Under the pieces are notes generated by a model, which saw only the letters and a list, made by a program, of their open reading frames with translations, did no database searches and had not been told where the DNA came from. The translations under genes were made by a program, and so were the position numbers. A stretch of 24,431 nt of DNA, taken from IMG/VR virus record IMGVR_UViG_2663762939_000013. One strand, 5' to 3'. This stretch comes from a virus (lineage: Duplodnaviria; Heunggongvirae; Uroviricota; Caudoviricetes). Positions 5,489 through 13,597 of the stretch are shown one piece after another (the first letter of the stretch is position 1; the number at the start of each line of letters is the position of its first letter).

Positions 5489-5764
5489 TCAGATTTCACC
5501 TTTTAATTTCATTGCAATTAGAGTTGCCAGAAATTCGGCTTTTTTTTCTGCGGGCAGATTCTTTCCGATATGCACCAGGCACATTTTTTTGACACCTTCA
5601 TCAAGTGTTTTTACGTTGCCTGATGGACCATCGATATCAACCACAGTGAATGGGGTTTCTTTATTTTCTGTTTTAATTACGTAGCCAATGCGCTTTCCTT
5701 CCAGATTCACCTCGTGAACAATGTCATCGGTAGTTACAACAGTGGCTTCATAATTGGTAATCAT
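5489..5764 (-). CDS. racC: RacC small protein, 91 aa
   Basis: ATG at 5764 preceded by GGAG; protein MITNYEATVVTTDDIVHEVNLEGKRIGYVIKTENK...; located directly upstream of recE as in Rac. Confidence 0.8.
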   Translation of the reverse strand: MITNYEATVVTTDDIVHEVNLEGKRIGYVIKTENKETPFTVVDIDGPSGNVKTLDEGVKKMCLVHIGKNLPAEKKAEFLATLIAMKLKGEI

Positions 5765-5838
5765 GTTTTTCTCCTTAATTAAGGTTGAGCGAATACCTGC
5801 CATTTCTGGCATAAATTCAGTTTCGAATAGTCAATTAA

Positions 5839-6005
5839 TTAAAGTTCATGTGCCATCTGGTCTTTTTCGGCACAAGCTTCACTGCAATATTTTCTCGGTT
5901 CGTCTTTTGATAAAATCCCGTGCATGAAGTGAAGCATTCTTTCAATAGCTTTGCTTTCTTCAACGTCTTTTTTGCAAAGGTGGTAAGCACATTTTATTTT
6001 CTTAG
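5839..6005 (-). pseudogene. ydaE: 5'-truncated ydaE-like zinc-binding small protein; start codon lost at the IS5 junction
   Basis: Minus-strand frame ...KKIKCAYHLCKKDVEESKAIERMLHFMHGILSKDEPRKYCSEACAEKDQMAHEL-stop (stop at 5839-5841) runs open into the IS5 terminal repeat with no start codon; Cys/His spacing suggests zinc binding. Gene symbol is a positional guess (racC-ydaE order in K-12). Confidence 0.5.
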
Positions 6006-7200
<1,195 letters not shown>

Positions 7201-7767
7201 ATAGGTATGTATGACTTGCATGGAAGTTTTATTCATTCGTTTTTTCTTGCCAGCTCCATGCTCACTGATAATGGTTTAGCTACGCAGGATTATGCAAGTT
7301 GGCCCACGCACACGATAGTGTTTTTGCTGTTGTCAAGTTTCTTTGGGGGATGTATAGGTTCAACTTGTGGTGGAATTAAGTCACTTCGATTTCTTATACT
7401 TTTCAAACAAAGCAAACACGAGATAAATCAGCTTTCTCATCCCAGAGCGTTGTTGAGTGTAAATGTAGGAGGGAAGATAGTTACAGATCGTGTAATGAGG
7501 TCTGTATGGAGTTTCTTTTTTCTTTATACTCTCTTCACGGTGTTTTTTATACTGGTGTTAAATGGTATGGGATATGATTTTCTTACATCATTTGCAACAG
7601 TGGCTGCATGTATTAATAATATGGGATTAGGTTTTGGGGCTACTGCATCGTCATTCGGAGTGCTTAATGACATTGCAAAATGTTTAATGTGCATAGCTAT
7701 GATTCTTGGTCGCCTTGAAATTTATCCTGTTATTATATTGTTTTCAGGTTTTTTTTGGCGCTCCTAA
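7201..7767 (+). pseudogene. trkG: 3' fragment of trkG (Trk K+ uptake protein, TrkH paralogue), C-terminal 188 codons only
   Basis: Frame opens exactly at the IS5 boundary; membrane-protein translation with the GGCIGSTCGGIK motif typical of TrkH/TrkG; visibly AT-rich; no N-terminal part present. Confidence 0.8.
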
Positions 7768-7904: not shown

Positions 7905-8696
7905 ATGAGCGAGAAATTAAAGATAGTCTATCGCCCATTACAAGAATTGTCACCGTATGCGCACAACGCCAGGACGCACAGTACTGAGCAGGTGGCACAA
8001 CTGGTAGAAAGTATTAAGCAATTCGGCTGGACTAATCCGGTGCTGATTGACGAAAAGGGCGAAATTATTGCGGGTCACGGTCGTGTTATGGCGGCTGAAA
8101 TGCTCAAAATGGATTCTGTTCCGGTCATTGTTCTGTCTGGCCTGACGGATGAGCAGAAAAAGGCGTACCGCCTGGCAGATAATCGCCTGCCGATGAATGC
8201 TGGCTGGGATGAAGATCTGTTGCGGATGGAGCTGTCGGACCTAATCAATGCTGATTTTGATGTCTCCCTGACAGGCTTCATCCCGACAGAAATTGATGAA
8301 CTGTTGACGGATGTTTTGCCCGGTACAGGAAATGAGGAGGAGCCGTATACGACGAAAATTGATACGCCTGTTTATGAGCCGTCGGGCGGTAAACCGGATA
8401 TCAGTGAACTGTACGACGATACGAAAACTCAGGAGCTGATCAGCCGGATACGTTCGGCGTCCCTTGAGCCTGATATTGAGAAATTCCTCCTGTGTGCGGC
8501 AGAACGTCACACGGTGTTTAATTTCAGCAGAATTGCGGACTATTACGCTCACGCCCCCTCTGAAATTCAGTGTTTTTTCGAGGAGTCGGCGCTGGTGATC
8601 ATTGATTATCAGCAGGCTATTGAAAATGGATTTGTCCGGATGACGCAGCGCATGGTGGAGATCATGCATGGTGGTGAGGAGGAGGAATATGCGTGA
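7905..8696 (+). CDS. ParB-like nuclease domain protein (ParB/Srx N-terminal domain), 263 aa; positional equivalent of K-12 Rac ynaK
   Basis: N-terminus KIVYRPLQELSPYAHNARTHSTEQVAQLVESIKQFGWTNPVLIDEKGEIIAGHGRVMAAEMLKMDSVPVIVL is a classic ParB N-terminal domain pattern; stop codon overlaps start of next gene (ATGCGTGA). Confidence 0.8.
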   Translation: MSEKLKIVYRPLQELSPYAHNARTHSTEQVAQLVESIKQFGWTNPVLIDEKGEIIAGHGRVMAAEMLKMDSVPVIVLSGLTDEQKKAYRLADNRLPMNAGWDEDLLRMELSDLINADFDVSLTGFIPTEIDELLTDVLPGTGNEEEPYTTKIDTPVYEPSGGKPDISELYDDTKTQELISRIRSASLEPDIEKFLLCAAERHTVFNFSRIADYYAHAPSEIQCFFEESALVIIDYQQAIENGFVRMTQRMVEIMHGGEEEEYA

Positions 8697-9621
8697 TGAT
8701 TTTTGCGCCTTTATTCTGACTCACGGGCGACCGGACAAAGTTCTGACTTACCGGACGTTGCGTCGTGCTGGCTATACCGGGAAAATTTTTATCGTTGTTG
8801 ATGATGAAGATAAGACACGGCATCAGTACATGGCTGAATTTGGTGAACAGGTGCTGGTGTTTTCCAAAGCCGATATCGCCAGTCGTTTTGACGAAGCCGA
8901 TAATTTCTGTGACCGCCGCTCAATTTTTTACGCCCGTAATGCCTGTTTCGACCTGGCAAAACTGGTCGGGTGTAAATACTTCATTCAGCTCGATGATGAT
9001 TATCACGAGTTCCAGTTTCGGGTGGATCGCAACTATGACCAGGCCTATTTTCCGATAAGGAAACTGGATGCGATCCTTTCTGAAATGCTGGCGTACTACG
9101 AATCAATACCTGCTCTTTCCATCGCTATGTCGCAGGGCGGGGATTTTCTTGGTGACAATGGCGGCCATGCTTCGTGGGTGAAACGCAAGGCAATGAACAG
9201 CTTTATCTGTTCGGTTGATCGACCGTTCTCATTCATGGGGCGCATTAACGAGGATGTGAATACGTACACGAATCTCGGTCGCTGTGGTGAATTGTTTATG
9301 ACGATCGGTGCTGTCCAGTTAGGGCAGAAACAGACGCAGAAAAACAGCGGCGGAATGACCGAGCTGTATCTGGATTCCGGAACCTACGTTAAAAGTTTTT
9401 ACTCCGTCATGTATGCGCCGTCGTGCGTAAAAATCTCACTGATGGGTGCCAGCCATAAACGCATTCACCATCAGGTCACCTGGAACAACGCTGCAGTAAA
9501 AATCCTTCACGAAAAATACAGGAAGAAGACACCCTGCATATCAATGGGGGTGACAAATGATTCCGTATTCGAAAGTCGAGTCTCTGGCAGCGTGCCGGAT
9601 GACTGCACAACAAATCGCTGA
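8689..9621 (+). CDS. Uncharacterised 310-aa protein, translationally coupled to the ParB-like gene; possible GT-A-like transferase (tentative)
   Basis: ATG at 8689 preceded by GGAGGAGGAA; motifs FILTHGRPDKVL, IFIVVDDEDK and YFIQLDDDYHEF spaced like the N-terminal strand / DxD signatures of GT-A fold enzymes. No fold assignment was possible here; function unknown. Confidence 0.7.
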   Translation: MRDDFCAFILTHGRPDKVLTYRTLRRAGYTGKIFIVVDDEDKTRHQYMAEFGEQVLVFSKADIASRFDEADNFCDRRSIFYARNACFDLAKLVGCKYFIQLDDDYHEFQFRVDRNYDQAYFPIRKLDAILSEMLAYYESIPALSIAMSQGGDFLGDNGGHASWVKRKAMNSFICSVDRPFSFMGRINEDVNTYTNLGRCGELFMTIGAVQLGQKQTQKNSGGMTELYLDSGTYVKSFYSVMYAPSCVKISLMGASHKRIHHQVTWNNAAVKILHEKYRKKTPCISMGVTNDSVFESRVSGSVPDDCTTNR

Positions 9622-9808
9622 CGTTCTGGATGTTGATCTGAACCGACTGAAAGAAAATCGGGAAGCAATGACAGATTTTTATGCGGCCATCCGTAAGGGC
9701 AGAGCGAAAGGTGAAGCCGAGTTACGAGCGGCATTGTTTAAGCTTGCCAGAAAAGGGGATGCCTTTGCTCTGCGCGAACTACTCAGGGTGGATAAAAATC
9801 AGGACTAA
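9557..9808 (+). CDS. Small helix-turn-helix-like protein, 83 aa (possible packaging or regulatory DNA-binding protein)
   Basis: ATG at 9557 preceded by GGGGGTGA; sequence ...MTAQQIADVLDVDLNRLKENREAM... resembles an HTH; overlaps 3' end of the upstream gene by 65 nt (alternative start at 9599 gives a 23-nt overlap); stop 3 nt before TerS start. Confidence 0.5.
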   Translation: MIPYSKVESLAACRMTAQQIADVLDVDLNRLKENREAMTDFYAAIRKGRAKGEAELRAALFKLARKGDAFALRELLRVDKNQD

Positions 9809-9811
9809 CTG

Positions 9812-10906
9812 ATGAGCAGACCGGACTGGGGGGCGTTGCAGCAGGAGTATATTGCTGAATACACCCGCTCCGGTATATCTCCGGTGGCATGGTGTGAAGC
9901 AAGGGGACTGAATTACGCAACAGCCCGTCGTTACATCAAAAAAACTCCGAAAAATGCGCAGACAGAAATGTGCAAAACTGCGCAAAAAAGTGCGCAGAAA
10001 AAATCTGCGCAGACTGCACAAAAGCGGAACGAAAAATCTCAGGAAAAAAAGCCAGTATTCGATGCGGGCCTGAATGAGGGCGACGCGGAGGAATTTTCGT
10101 TCTGTCCCGATGAATTCGGCATTTCTGACCAGCAGGCTAAGTTTGCGATGCTTGTTGCTCAGGGTAAAAAGCCGACAGAGGCGTACCGACTAGCCGGTTA
10201 TGAGGGGCAAGGTGCGACAGCTAATAGCAACGCCAGTCGTATGCTTAGAAATGCCAGGGTTTTTCGCGCTATCAGCTACTTCCGCAATCAGTACCAGAAA
10301 CGCTATACCGCAGACCTGGATTTACTAGTGAGTCAGTTGATGGCCATTGTCCTGGCCGACCCCAATCAGCTTGCACAATTTCGCCGTGTTAACTGCCGTT
10401 ATTGCTGGGGCGAGAATCATCTCTACCAGTGGCGCGATATAGCAGAATTCGACAAGGCAGCGGCGCAGGCTTCCAGAGATGGCAAACCCGAACCGGAATA
10501 TGGAGGCCTCGGCTTTGTTGATAACGCCATACCCAATCCGGACTGCCCGAAGTGCTGCGGTGAGGGAACGGGACAGCTTTATATGGCTGATACCACTCTG
10601 CTTGATGGGGATGCGCGGCAATTATATGCAGGGGCAAAATTCGGAAAATTCGGCGTTGAGATCCTGCTGGAGGATAAGGCTGCCGCCCGGCGTGAATTGT
10701 TGCGTTTGCTTTCTGCTGGCGGGGCTTTATGTGCAGATAAGCGGCTACAGGAACTGGAAATTGAACGGCGCAGAATGGAAAACCAGAAGCTGCGCAAAGA
10801 GATCGAAACGGTGGAAGATAATGAACATCCCCAGCCTGTGGCGATCAATATTAATGTGGTTGATGCCAGAGTAAGGAGTGATGAAGATGATCTCTCCGAC
10901 GCTTAA
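9812..10906 (+). CDS. Terminase small subunit (Terminase_2/P27-like core) with N-terminal extension, CxxC...CxxC zinc ribbon and C-terminal coiled coil, 364 aa
   Basis: Core QQAKFAMLVAQGKKPTEAYRLAGYEGQGATANSNASRMLRNARVFRAI matches the conserved terminase small subunit pattern; NCRYCWGENH...DCPKCCGEG zinc-ribbon-like cysteines; immediately upstream of and overlapping the large terminase. Confidence 0.8.
   Translation: MSRPDWGALQQEYIAEYTRSGISPVAWCEARGLNYATARRYIKKTPKNAQTEMCKTAQKSAQKKSAQTAQKRNEKSQEKKPVFDAGLNEGDAEEFSFCPDEFGISDQQAKFAMLVAQGKKPTEAYRLAGYEGQGATANSNASRMLRNARVFRAISYFRNQYQKRYTADLDLLVSQLMAIVLADPNQLAQFRRVNCRYCWGENHLYQWRDIAEFDKAAAQASRDGKPEPEYGGLGFVDNAIPNPDCPKCCGEGTGQLYMADTTLLDGDARQLYAGAKFGKFGVEILLEDKAAARRELLRLLSAGGALCADKRLQELEIERRRMENQKLRKEIETVEDNEHPQPVAININVVDARVRSDEDDLSDA
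9955..10020 (+). repeat. Array of six TGCGCA/TGTGCA/TGCACA palindromic hexamers inside the TerS gene (candidate pac/TerS-binding repeats; also encodes an AQK peptide repeat)
   Basis: Hexamers start at 9955, 9969, 9979, 9991, 10006, 10015 (spacing 9-15 bp); protein here reads NAQTEMCKTAQKSAQKKSAQTAQK. Confidence 0.5.
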
Positions 10907-12188
10907 TGTGCCTCAGGCGCGATTTCTTTCAATGCCCCATAAATTTAAAGCCTATATTGCTGGTTTTGGCTCGGGCAAAACATGGGTTGGGTGTGGCGGC
11001 ATATGCAAGGGGATTTGGGAGCATCCAGGTATAAATCAGGGATATTTTGCGCCAACGTATCCCCAAATTCGCGATATTTTTTACCCTACAGTGGAAGAAG
11101 TTGCTGCTGACTGGGGATTGAACGTAAAAATTAATGAGGGAAATAAAGAGGTTCACTTTTATTACGGACGCCAGTATCGGGGAACCACTATCTGCAGATC
11201 GATGGAGAAGCCACAAACGATCGTCGGTTTCAAAATTGGTAATGCGTTGGTGGATGAACTGGACATTTTGCCGAAGGAAAAAGCCAGAACGGCGTGGCGC
11301 AAGATAATTGCACGTATGCGTTATAAGATTGATGGACTTCGCAACGGTATTGACGTTACAACCACGCCGGAAGGATTCAAATTTGTCTACGAGCAGTTTG
11401 TTAAAGCCGTGCGTGAAAAAACAGAGCTGGCCTCACTGTATGGTCTGGTGCAGGCATCTACTTTCGATAATGAAAAGAACCTGCCAGCAGATTACATTCC
11501 TTCGCTTCTTGAATCATACCCTCCAGAGCTGATTAAAGCCTATCTTCGAGGACAGTTTACTAACCTGACAAGTGGTACTGTTTACCATCAGTTTGACCGG
11601 AAACTGAATAATTGCGAAGAAGTGGAGCAGCCAGGGGAGCCGATTTATATTGGGATGGATTTTAACGTTGGAAAGATGGCGGGAATCGTCCATGTGCTGC
11701 GTTTGGGGCTTCCATGTGCGGTAACTGAAATCATCAATGCCTACGATACGCCGGATATGATCCGCATCATTAAAGAACGCTTCTGGCTGTATGATGGGAA
11801 TGATTACCGGAAAGTGAGGGAAATTTATATTTATCCAGATGCTTCCGGGGATTCCAGAAAATCAAGTAACGCAAGTACGACGGATATAGCCCAGCTTAAG
11901 CAGGCTGGTTTTAACGTTGTGGTGAACAGCTCGAACCCGCCAGTAAAAGATCGCGTTAACTCAATGAATGCAATGTTCTGCAATGCCAATGGTGAGCGTC
12001 GCTATAAAGTTAATGTGAAGCGTTGCCCGTTATATGCCGAATCTCTGGAGCAACAGGTCTGGGATGAGAAGGGGGAGCCTGATAAAAAATCTGGCAATGA
12101 TCACCCGAATGATGCCGGAGGTTATTTCATCGTTAAGCAATTCCCTATTGTCAAACCGACCGGAAGAGTCACATCACTTCGGATTTAA
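10887..12188 (+). CDS. Terminase large subunit (ATPase/nuclease)
   Basis: Walker A motif AGFGSGKTW near N-terminus; ATG at 10887 has AAGGAG 8 nt upstream (in-frame GTG/ATG at 10878/10881 also possible); follows TerS; about 430 aa. Confidence 0.9.
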   Translation: MISPTLNVPQARFLSMPHKFKAYIAGFGSGKTWVGCGGICKGIWEHPGINQGYFAPTYPQIRDIFYPTVEEVAADWGLNVKINEGNKEVHFYYGRQYRGTTICRSMEKPQTIVGFKIGNALVDELDILPKEKARTAWRKIIARMRYKIDGLRNGIDVTTTPEGFKFVYEQFVKAVREKTELASLYGLVQASTFDNEKNLPADYIPSLLESYPPELIKAYLRGQFTNLTSGTVYHQFDRKLNNCEEVEQPGEPIYIGMDFNVGKMAGIVHVLRLGLPCAVTEIINAYDTPDMIRIIKERFWLYDGNDYRKVREIYIYPDASGDSRKSSNASTTDIAQLKQAGFNVVVNSSNPPVKDRVNSMNAMFCNANGERRYKVNVKRCPLYAESLEQQVWDEKGEPDKKSGNDHPNDAGGYFIVKQFPIVKPTGRVTSLRI

Positions 12189-12190
12189 TT

Positions 12191-13597
12191 ATGGCTGATA
12201 TATCAACACCCAACCTCGACTATAACGATATGCTGGAGGCGTGGGATATTAACGACGCACTGATGGGCGGTACGCTTGAAATGCGCAGGCAGGGGGAAAA
12301 TTATCTCCCAAAATGGCCTAACGAAGATGAAGACGCTTATAAAAAACGCCTGTCTGTGGCTACGCTACTTCCTGTGTATGAAGAAAGCATCAAGCAAAAT
12401 ATTGGGCGCATATTTGCAGAGCCGACAGTATTGAGTGAGGAAACGCCGGCAAAAATCAGGGAATATGCAGAAAATATCGACATGGAGGGGAGCCGACTGG
12501 ATGTGTGGGCGCAGCAATTTTTCAGCCTCGCATTTCAGTATGGTGTGGCACATGCGCTGGTGGACTATCCACGAACGGATATGAAAGAGATTCGGACAAA
12601 AGCCGATGAAAACGCGGCCGGTGGTCGTCCGTACGTTACGATGCTGAATCCACGCCAGGTTATTGGATGGAAATCGAAAGTTGAAAAAGGGAAAGTTGTT
12701 CTCACTGATTTGCGTATAAAAGAGGTCATCATTATTGATGGTGATGATTTCGGGCAGAAGAAGGTGGAGCAGATCCGCCATATTATGCCCCGTCGAGTTG
12801 AAATTTATCGACGTAGCGAAGGCACTAATGGCGAATCTGTCTGGACGCTTCATGAGTCATGGAATACCAGCCGTGATGATATTCCTCTGGTAACACTGTA
12901 CACGAAGAAAACAGGATTTATGCGTGGTACACCGCCATTGCTTAATCTTGGCTTGCTGAATATCAAGCACTGGCAAAGCCAGAGCGAGCAGGACAATATT
13001 CTTCATGTTGCCCGCGTTCCATTGCTGGTGGCCTACGGGCTGGACAGGAATGAAGAACTGACGGTTGGTGCATCCACCGCTACGATTTTTGAGGACAGAA
13101 CAAAAAATGGCCTCGAATATGTTGAACATAGTGGCGCAGCGATAGAATCTGGCGAAACATCACTTGAGAAGCTGGAAAATCAGATGCGTCATGCCGGCGC
13201 TAAACTTCTGCGTGCTGAAAATACATCCACCAAATCTGTTGATCAGACTAATGAAGAGCGAATGCAGGAAAACTCGCCGCTTTATACAATGGCGAACTCC
13301 CTCGAAGATGCCCTCGATAATATTCTCCAGATAATGGCGGAATGGATCGGAGAGAGTTGCGGTGGCAATGTGGATGTGCGCACTGAACTGGATGTATCTG
13401 CCCAGGTGTTTGACTCATCCTCCGCGCTGGCTGTTCAGTCATTGCGTCAGGGCGGTGATATACGTCAGATTGATGCGGTTCGGGTGTTGCAGGCGTTGAA
13501 ATTTATCGATCAGGATTCCCGTCCAGAGGAAGTGATCGATGAATTAAAAAATCAGAGTGTAATGCTGATGGAAATCAATGATGCAAACCGTGAATGA
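12191..13597 (+). CDS. Portal protein, 468 aa
   Basis: Large ORF immediately after terminase large subunit (start 2 nt after its stop); size and position typical of portal; no domain-level confirmation. Confidence 0.75.
   Translation: MADISTPNLDYNDMLEAWDINDALMGGTLEMRRQGENYLPKWPNEDEDAYKKRLSVATLLPVYEESIKQNIGRIFAEPTVLSEETPAKIREYAENIDMEGSRLDVWAQQFFSLAFQYGVAHALVDYPRTDMKEIRTKADENAAGGRPYVTMLNPRQVIGWKSKVEKGKVVLTDLRIKEVIIIDGDDFGQKKVEQIRHIMPRRVEIYRRSEGTNGESVWTLHESWNTSRDDIPLVTLYTKKTGFMRGTPPLLNLGLLNIKHWQSQSEQDNILHVARVPLLVAYGLDRNEELTVGASTATIFEDRTKNGLEYVEHSGAAIESGETSLEKLENQMRHAGAKLLRAENTSTKSVDQTNEERMQENSPLYTMANSLEDALDNILQIMAEWIGESCGGNVDVRTELDVSAQVFDSSSALAVQSLRQGGDIRQIDAVRVLQALKFIDQDSRPEEVIDELKNQSVMLMEINDANRE

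Follow-up and report, generated by a model that had tools for sequence, protein, structure and literature searches.

A clustered hexamer array inside the small-terminase gene of a Rac-type prophage: a candidate pac site built on the P1 plan

How the small terminase (TerS) of a tailed phage chooses viral DNA for packaging is still poorly understood, and those ring-shaped TerS proteins that have been studied well show little sequence specificity in binding DNA. The question is raised by a 24,431-nt stretch of caudoviral DNA (IMG/VR record IMGVR_UViG_2663762939_000013; "the window" below means this whole stretch). Its TerS gene (9812..10906, + strand, 364 amino acids) carries six near-identical palindromic hexamers of the type TGCGCA within 66 bp. 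A sequence-only reading of the window had named these hexamers a candidate pac site, and had left undecided whether the repeat was driven by the encoded peptide, by the DNA, or by both. Here we ask which of these it is, what protein would read the hexamers, and how far the arrangement resembles known packaging sites, above all the pac site of phage P1.

The hexamers (boxes) lie at +143..+208 relative to the TerS ATG. Box 1 (TGCGCA, 9955..9960) is read as AAT GCG CAG (N-A-Q) and is kept in all E. coli alleles compared. Box 3 (TGCGCA, 9979..9984) is read as ACT GCG CAA (T-A-Q) and box 4 (TGCGCA, 9991..9996) as AGT GCG CAG (S-A-Q). Box 5 (TGCGCA, 10006..10011) is the centre of a 10-bp palindrome, TCTGCGCAGA (10004-10013), and boxes 4 and 5 together form an 8-bp inverted repeat (TGCGCAGA/TCTGCGCA). 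Box 2 (TGTGCA, 9969..9974) and box 6 (TGCACA, 10015..10020) each differ from the others by one transition. Most E. coli alleles have a perfect TGCGCA at both sites, box 2 then being read as ATG CGC AAA (M-R-K) rather than ATG TGC AAA (M-C-K). Judged by these alleles, the copies at boxes 2 and 6 are derived and degenerate. Their two transitions are those that would result if the inner C of GCGC were deaminated, but this source was dropped, as two sites prove nothing. Direct reading and a pattern search reproduced exactly the six start positions that had been proposed (9955, 9969, 9979, 9991, 10006 and 10015). The spacing had been described as one helical turn, which is true only approximately: the start-to-start distances of 14, 10, 12, 15 and 9 (mean 12) are irregular and not helically phased. 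The accompanying Ala-Gln-Lys (AQK) peptide repeat is real for five boxes, which encode N-AQ-T, T-AQ-K, S-AQ-K, S-AQ-T and T-AQ-K; box 2 is in another frame. A pattern search found no second box cluster within several hundred bp of the array. The first 439 bp of the gene (9812-10250, boxes included) are matched in 915/5426 complete E. coli genomes.

Over the whole window there is no excess of the hexamer (25 TGYRCA against ~31 expected); it is the clustering that stands out. Dinucleotide-preserving shuffles of the window reached a maximum of 4 TGYRCA in a 66-bp cluster (2/1000 shuffles), shuffles of the TerS gene alone a maximum of 3, and shuffles of the local 121 bp a maximum of 4 in 5000. When the peptide was fixed and synonymous codons were redrawn from the window's own codon usage, six TGYRCA were obtained in 2/20000 draws and four TGCGCA in 3/20000. 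The clustering is beyond chance, even with the peptide held fixed.

The boxes encode TerS residues 48-70 and thus fall within a linker rich in Lys, Gln and Ala that is predicted to be disordered (residues 45-92, 9944..10087, + strand). The AF2 predicted local distance difference test score (pLDDT) is <50 across these residues; the full-length model is poor (mean pLDDT 55) and was used for domain boundaries only. Upstream of the linker is a three-helix helix-turn-helix (HTH) domain (residues 1-44, 9812..9943, + strand), the proposed box reader. Downstream is a body with a Cys-rich insertion that matches Terminase_2 (PF03592, residues 122-321, 35.1 bits against a gathering cut-off of 26.1). The Terminase_2 match begins only at residue ~105-122, and PF03592 is present in all close homologues. 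The protein also matches the PHROG family phrog_51 (E 2e-76). TerS is a chimera, in which an extra HTH and a linker are joined to a conventional Terminase_2 body.

Is the repeat a property of the peptide or of the DNA? Homologues were collected from species-representative genomes and viral contigs using TerS residues 1-44 only, so that the repeat was not part of the query and circularity was avoided. The genomes yielded 66 loci. Every intact locus with the motif ARR[YH] in the recognition helix carries 3-7 TGCGC boxes at about +120..+235, right after the HTH; the hosts include Escherichia, Shigella, Klebsiella, Enterobacter, Citrobacter, Serratia, Pantoea, Xenorhabdus and others. Across 52 distinct linkers from Enterobacterales, Aeromonas and Vibrio we counted 248 boxes, a density of 41/kb compared with 1.8/kb in the flanks (~23x). 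The sixth base is A in 239/248 boxes. The boxes are translated as x-Ala-Gln (190), [Val/Leu/Met]-Arg (46) or Cys-Ala (12), and at least two reading frames are used in 46/53 loci. Common spacings are 7, 9, 12 and 14. Synonymous positions within the linkers are strongly conserved, which was the check that the sequence-only reading had called for. Of the AQ dipeptides in linkers, 90% use GCG for Ala and 93% have T at the wobble position just before it, compared with 54% and 34% for AQ elsewhere in the same loci; the Fisher p of 4e-64 overstates the independence of these related sequences, but the direction and size of the effect are unambiguous. The residue before AQ varies (T, S, A, N, P, I, D). 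Because the synonymous positions are so strongly conserved and the boxes are independent of frame, the comparison indicates that the repeat is DNA-driven, i.e., that selection acts on the DNA itself.

Some homologues have a broken TerS frame. The protein database contains many ORFs (open reading frames) of 44-79 residues that consist of the HTH and part of the linker (proteins P0121-P0240), which points to frequent breaks of the TerS frame within the A-rich linker. These could be homopolymer sequencing errors or real frameshifts. At two loci (L030 and L123) the boxes are retained in a shifted frame. The L030 case was not used as evidence, as it is probably a homopolymer sequencing error.

The N-terminal domain, which has an HTH fold, provides the link to P1. 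Pairwise BLAST of TerS against P1 PacA alone is weak (E 0.044). An alignment of 18 diverse N-domains matched the N-termini of the P1 and D6 PacA proteins with an hhalign probability of 98% (E 1.7e-13, 44 columns). Beyond this domain TerS has no likeness to PacA. The HTH also matches the TerS of Shiga-toxin (Stx) phages, e.g., VT2-Sakai (40% identity, E 9e-10). In the P1 genome annotation (NC_005856), pac cleavage is placed at +275..+284 of pacA and a site for integration host factor (IHF) at +255..+267. TGATCA/G hexamers are found in pacA at +193..+236 (four) and +324..+352 (three). The P1 hexamers lie just 3′ of the HTH-coding segment, in mixed frames and with a spacing of 7-15 bp. One study (PMC10028697) describes P1 pac as a 161-bp segment inside pacA with seven hexamers that contain Dam sites, together with IHF and HU, and cites for the classical work Sternberg & Coulby 1987 and Skorupski et al. 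1994. Synonymous recoding of the P1 pac hexamers lowered the phage titre ~9-fold (PMC10028697). The proposal of a pac site in the window gains support from the homology of the TerS N-terminus to PacA, a link that the sequence-only reading had not drawn, and from the equivalent position of the experimentally defined hexamers in P1.

Box type also varies with the third helix of the HTH. Helices with ARR[YH] go with TGCGCA (class A; ~50 genome loci, Aeromonas phiARM81mr, Vibrio phage douglas 12A4 and 38 distinct viral linkers). Helices with AKR[YH]IK[IVA] go with TGCGAA, often within the 12-bp palindrome TGCGAATTCGCA (class B; 9 genome loci, Yersinia phage vB_YenM_210.17 and 5 viral linkers). In class B the boxes TGCGAAT/TGCGAAA, with the peptide ANSQK, replace TGCGCA, and the codons are nearly fixed (GCG 38/39, wobble T 37/39, AAT 38/39). 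Loci of this class include L017, L019, L023, L025, L033, L041, L044 and L045 (+120..+260, with the TerS start at 2501) and L160:1620-1700. The Stx-phage helix ARTRIK goes with four CGATCAT boxes 12 bp apart, and the P1 helix ARRYLR with TGATCA. Box type is independent of the TerS body, and one body cluster carries three box types; the bodies were clustered with strict coverage, loose single linkage having merged everything. It is likewise independent of the TerL cluster, the large-terminase (TerL) classes including Terminase_6N/6C, Terminase_3/3C, the Stx type and PacB.

The VT2-Sakai terS gene (L158:1501-1800; AP000422 30131-) can be described further. After the HTH there are four CGATCATGAAAT-type boxes at 12-bp spacing, encoding the peptides IDHE, IDHK, TDHE and IDHD. 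Each contains a GATC Dam site, as in P1 pac. A TGTGCA and a TGCGCA are found ~60 bp beyond the GATC boxes. From its sequence and position, this array may be an unrecognised pac site of 933W-type Stx phages.

The association was also approached from the side of the boxes, by scanning viral contigs for three TGCGCA separated by short gaps (120 stretches were listed). Among the matches listed there were 121 clusters, 73 of which adjoin a PacA-like HTH. All of these (73/73 among the matches listed) are oriented alike, and their first box is at +130..+173. The remaining clusters among the matches listed are mostly tandem coding repeats, GC-rich intergenic arrays and contig-edge cases. In one contig (L167:1900-2250) five or six TGCGCA boxes, in mixed frames, come after an N-terminal HTH that is more divergent (…ESTLRKRIASGGW). 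Other viral contigs with TGCGCA clusters (L195, L205, L280 and L263) have intergenic arrays of 4-7 boxes.

From these comparisons we consider it reasonably probable that the array is a P1-like pac site, with the six boxes as its recognition elements and, as their reader, a PacA-type HTH joined to a Terminase_2 body. Several HTHs of a TerS oligomer, each on a flexible linker, would bind the clustered boxes cooperatively on concatemeric phage DNA. Box-bound TerS would recruit TerL (Terminase_6N/6C), which would cut nearby, and headful packaging would start from the cut. As the array lies in the codons of a disordered linker, the DNA signal could dictate an AQK-rich peptide at little cost to the protein. 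The arrangement would also keep reader domain and site together on the DNA as a single cassette, which has come to be combined with several TerS bodies and TerL types. More tentatively, and with somewhat less than even confidence, we propose that tailed phages of Gammaproteobacteria share a portable packaging-specificity cassette, consisting of a PacA-type HTH of ~44 residues and its own hexamer array in the linker codons. On this view at least four unrelated TerS bodies and several TerL families would have acquired the cassette (P1, Stx/933W, Rac-type, Klebsiella, Yersinia, Aeromonas, Vibrio). Its specificity would have been re-set several times (TGATCA, CGATCA, TGCGCA, TGCGAATTCGCA), and the change from class A to class B may go with no more than R39K and K44I/V in the recognition helix.

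Several points weigh against the pac reading. The hexamer of the window, TGCGCA, differs from that of P1 in having no GATC and no obvious Dam control, and the window has one cluster of six boxes where P1 has four plus three flanking the cut. No IHF-like site (WATCAANNNNTTR, at most one mismatch) was found on either strand of 9750-10350, and P1 pac has one. Helix 3 alone does not set specificity, as the P1 helix has ARRY but goes with TGATCA. The association of HTH and box type could be plain linkage, the two being <100 bp apart, and the split between class A and class B may be a single evolutionary event. The real pac reader could be the Terminase_2 body's own DNA-binding region. There are TGCGCA clusters in unrelated contexts too. 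In a set of 8 E. coli alleles, variable positions are about as frequent in boxes (4/36) as in spacers (7/40), within-species polymorphism being too shallow to reveal extra constraint on the boxes. A literature search found no packaging end, cleavage site, footprint or gel shift for the TerS family with a PacA-type HTH. The same literature search returned no paper tying TGCGCA to a phage terminase and no prior description of such an array. As for the phage records, the vB_EcoS-... "phages" matching the window are prophages predicted in silico, no termini are given in the Yersinia phage paper, and the Stx phage record PV189402 is merely re-oriented to begin at terL.

Other functions could be served by the same boxes. 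They may bind the TerS HTH or another protein in a role unrelated to packaging, such as autoregulation of terS/terL through an intragenic operator, or a roadblock. Conservation at the DNA level and association with an HTH would suit any sequence-specific binding role, the palindromic hexamers and the 12-bp TGCGAATTCGCA of class B resemble operators of dimeric HTH proteins, and the TGCGCA arrays in intergenic regions of unrelated viral contigs fit such binding. We nevertheless regard this as unlikely. The homologous domain and arrangement in P1 belong to an experimentally defined pac site, the HTH module is found only at the N-termini of small terminases, across many body types, and no promoter-like site was found near the boxes. 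A role in RNA is less probable again. The boxes might form mRNA hairpins that tune TerS translation or stability, or terminators of antisense transcription on the opposite strand: 9935-10050 folds as RNA at -29.8 kcal/mol (z = -4.7), and the minus strand has two terminator-like hairpins followed by T runs (10011-9991, boxes 4/5, and 10022-10004, boxes 5/6). Any array of self-complementary hexamers with A runs in between would, however, fold in this way as a by-product. Compensatory changes would be acceptable in a structural RNA; from Vibrio to Escherichia, by contrast, the hexamer stays exactly the same. In class B it is replaced as a whole by a different palindrome, while the number of boxes and the distances between them are free to vary. 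Rfam gave no match for the box region.

We give two further explanations very little probability. A low-complexity AQK linker expanded by slippage would leave the boxes as a mere footprint of the peptide; this would agree with the x-A-Q encoded by five of the six boxes in a K/Q/A-rich disordered linker, and with a weak 12-nt and 36-nt periodicity reported by TRF. The three frames in which boxes are translated (AQ, [VLM]R, CA) and the near-fixed synonymous positions despite deep divergence contradict it, as does the box count of the window with the peptide fixed (p ~1e-4). A peptide-only origin was rejected on the frame and codon evidence. It is just as improbable that the boxes are mainly a recombination hot spot, i.e., short repeated homology at the point where terminase genes exchange the HTH module. 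In its favour, at least four TerS bodies and several TerL types are found with the module, the joints lying downstream of the boxes. In phage Rac-SA53 (L010:1112-1260, KU052037) terS similarity begins a few bases after box 1, which places a deletion end-point inside the array. Recombination gives no account of why the exact hexamer, its 3′ A and its multiplicity are kept within lineages, or why hexamer and HTH class vary together, and the joints need not fall in boxes. The Rac-SA53 record is itself annotated as "gpOterS; fusion of two genes by deletion". This fusion hints at breakage or recombination at the box array, in a single case.

The genes around the array place it in a Rac-type lambdoid prophage with an integrase, RecT, RecE, an IS5-type transposase and a truncated trkG, followed by packaging and head genes. 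The TerL gene (10878..12188, + strand) encodes a Terminase_6N/6C protein, the presumed nuclease/motor partner of TerS, and is followed by the portal gene (12191-13597). Its product is 43-51% identical to the TerL of Kagunavirus and Jersey-like siphoviruses, the closest named relatives. These phages are described as headful packagers. A sequence search of solved structures gave no match for TerL and only a marginal one for TerS. Upstream, the IS5-type transposase gene (6152-7168, - strand) adjoins a C-terminal fragment of trkG (7186-7767), and this junction is absent from every complete E. coli genome in our collection. No immunity-, replication- or lysis-like genes were found between recE and the trkG fragment (window 5489-7767), where a Rac-type prophage would be expected to have them. 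Because immunity, replication and lysis genes are missing, this copy of the prophage is probably defective, and it is probably also strain-specific. The same absence, together with the two degenerate boxes, suggests that the array in the window is probably inert.

Directly upstream of the terminase genes (7905-9621), a ParB_N (ynaK-like) gene overlaps the start of a gene of the TAGT family (TET-associated glycosyltransferase in Pfam; "GREB1-related protein" in RefSeq). Although the glycosyltransferase is present, the window has no gene for a TET dioxygenase or a cytosine methyltransferase. Immediately upstream of TerS is an ORF at 9557-9808 (83 aa; 69 aa in the RefSeq version), which matches part of the small-terminase family phrog_309 (profile positions 145-218). 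The ORF could encode a further accessory DNA-binding protein for packaging, or be a remnant.

The array is of wider interest for several reasons. The TerS family with a PacA-type HTH offers a case that can be read from sequence, with a separate HTH reader, adjoining hexamers, and natural swappable variants (TGCGCA, TGCGAATTCGCA, GATCA). It also shows clearly how a DNA signal can dictate the amino acids of a protein linker. The box-bearing stretch of TerS is widespread in E. coli prophages, and homologous modules are found in Shiga-toxin phages. If validated as a pac site, the array would predict the start points of lateral and generalized transduction, would help to explain mobilisable satellites and plasmids, and could supply short portable packaging signals for phage-based DNA delivery. 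Should the broader cassette proposal be true, pac and the starts of packaging and transduction could be read from the sequence of many enterobacterial prophages, and reprogrammed.

How does the array compare with known packaging sites? P22, Sf6 and ES18 are headful packagers in which pac is embedded in the terS coding sequence, and P22 pac is a single asymmetric sequence of ~22 bp. The window differs in having a hexamer array, and the TerS families are different. In SPP1, pac is located at or around the TerS gene and consists of repeated boxes (pacL/pacR) bound by G1P. The sequence-only reading had likewise described pac in P22, SPP1 and Sf6 as lying within or next to the TerS gene and as often made of repeated boxes; these phages are less apt comparators than P1. 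The TerS body of the window resembles SPP1/SF6 in matching Terminase_2. In SPP1/SF6, however, the HTH is the N-terminus of the Terminase_2 protein itself, whereas the window has an extra PacA-type HTH in front of the body, and it is this HTH that the box type follows. DNA binding by SPP1/SF6 TerS is reported to be largely sequence-independent (PMC4737164).

The cosB site of lambda offers a looser parallel, in which repeated boxes also adjoin the TerS gene and an N-terminal small-terminase HTH is the reader, as is proposed for the window. Lambda cosB has 16-bp R elements bound by the winged HTH of gpNu1, along with an IHF site, and lies outside the coding region, where it serves cos cleavage. 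No sequence or family relation to lambda turned up, no lambda-specific test having been made.

The closest likeness is to P1. In the window, as in P1, the boxes are inside the small-terminase gene and directly 3′ of a homologous HTH segment, and in both they are repeated palindromic hexamers with irregular spacing in different reading frames. The rest of the machinery differs: the TerS body is Terminase_2 and not PacA, TerL is Terminase_6N/6C and not PacB, and the host element is a Rac-type lambdoid siphovirus prophage and not a P1-like plasmid prophage. Two P1 features were tried as templates for the window. A search for a bipartite arrangement like that of P1, with an IHF site, gave nothing, and P1-style methylation control was set aside, the boxes being without GATC and the window without a methyltransferase gene. 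The array in the window is not a strict member of the P1 pac family; it would be a variant built on the same plan.

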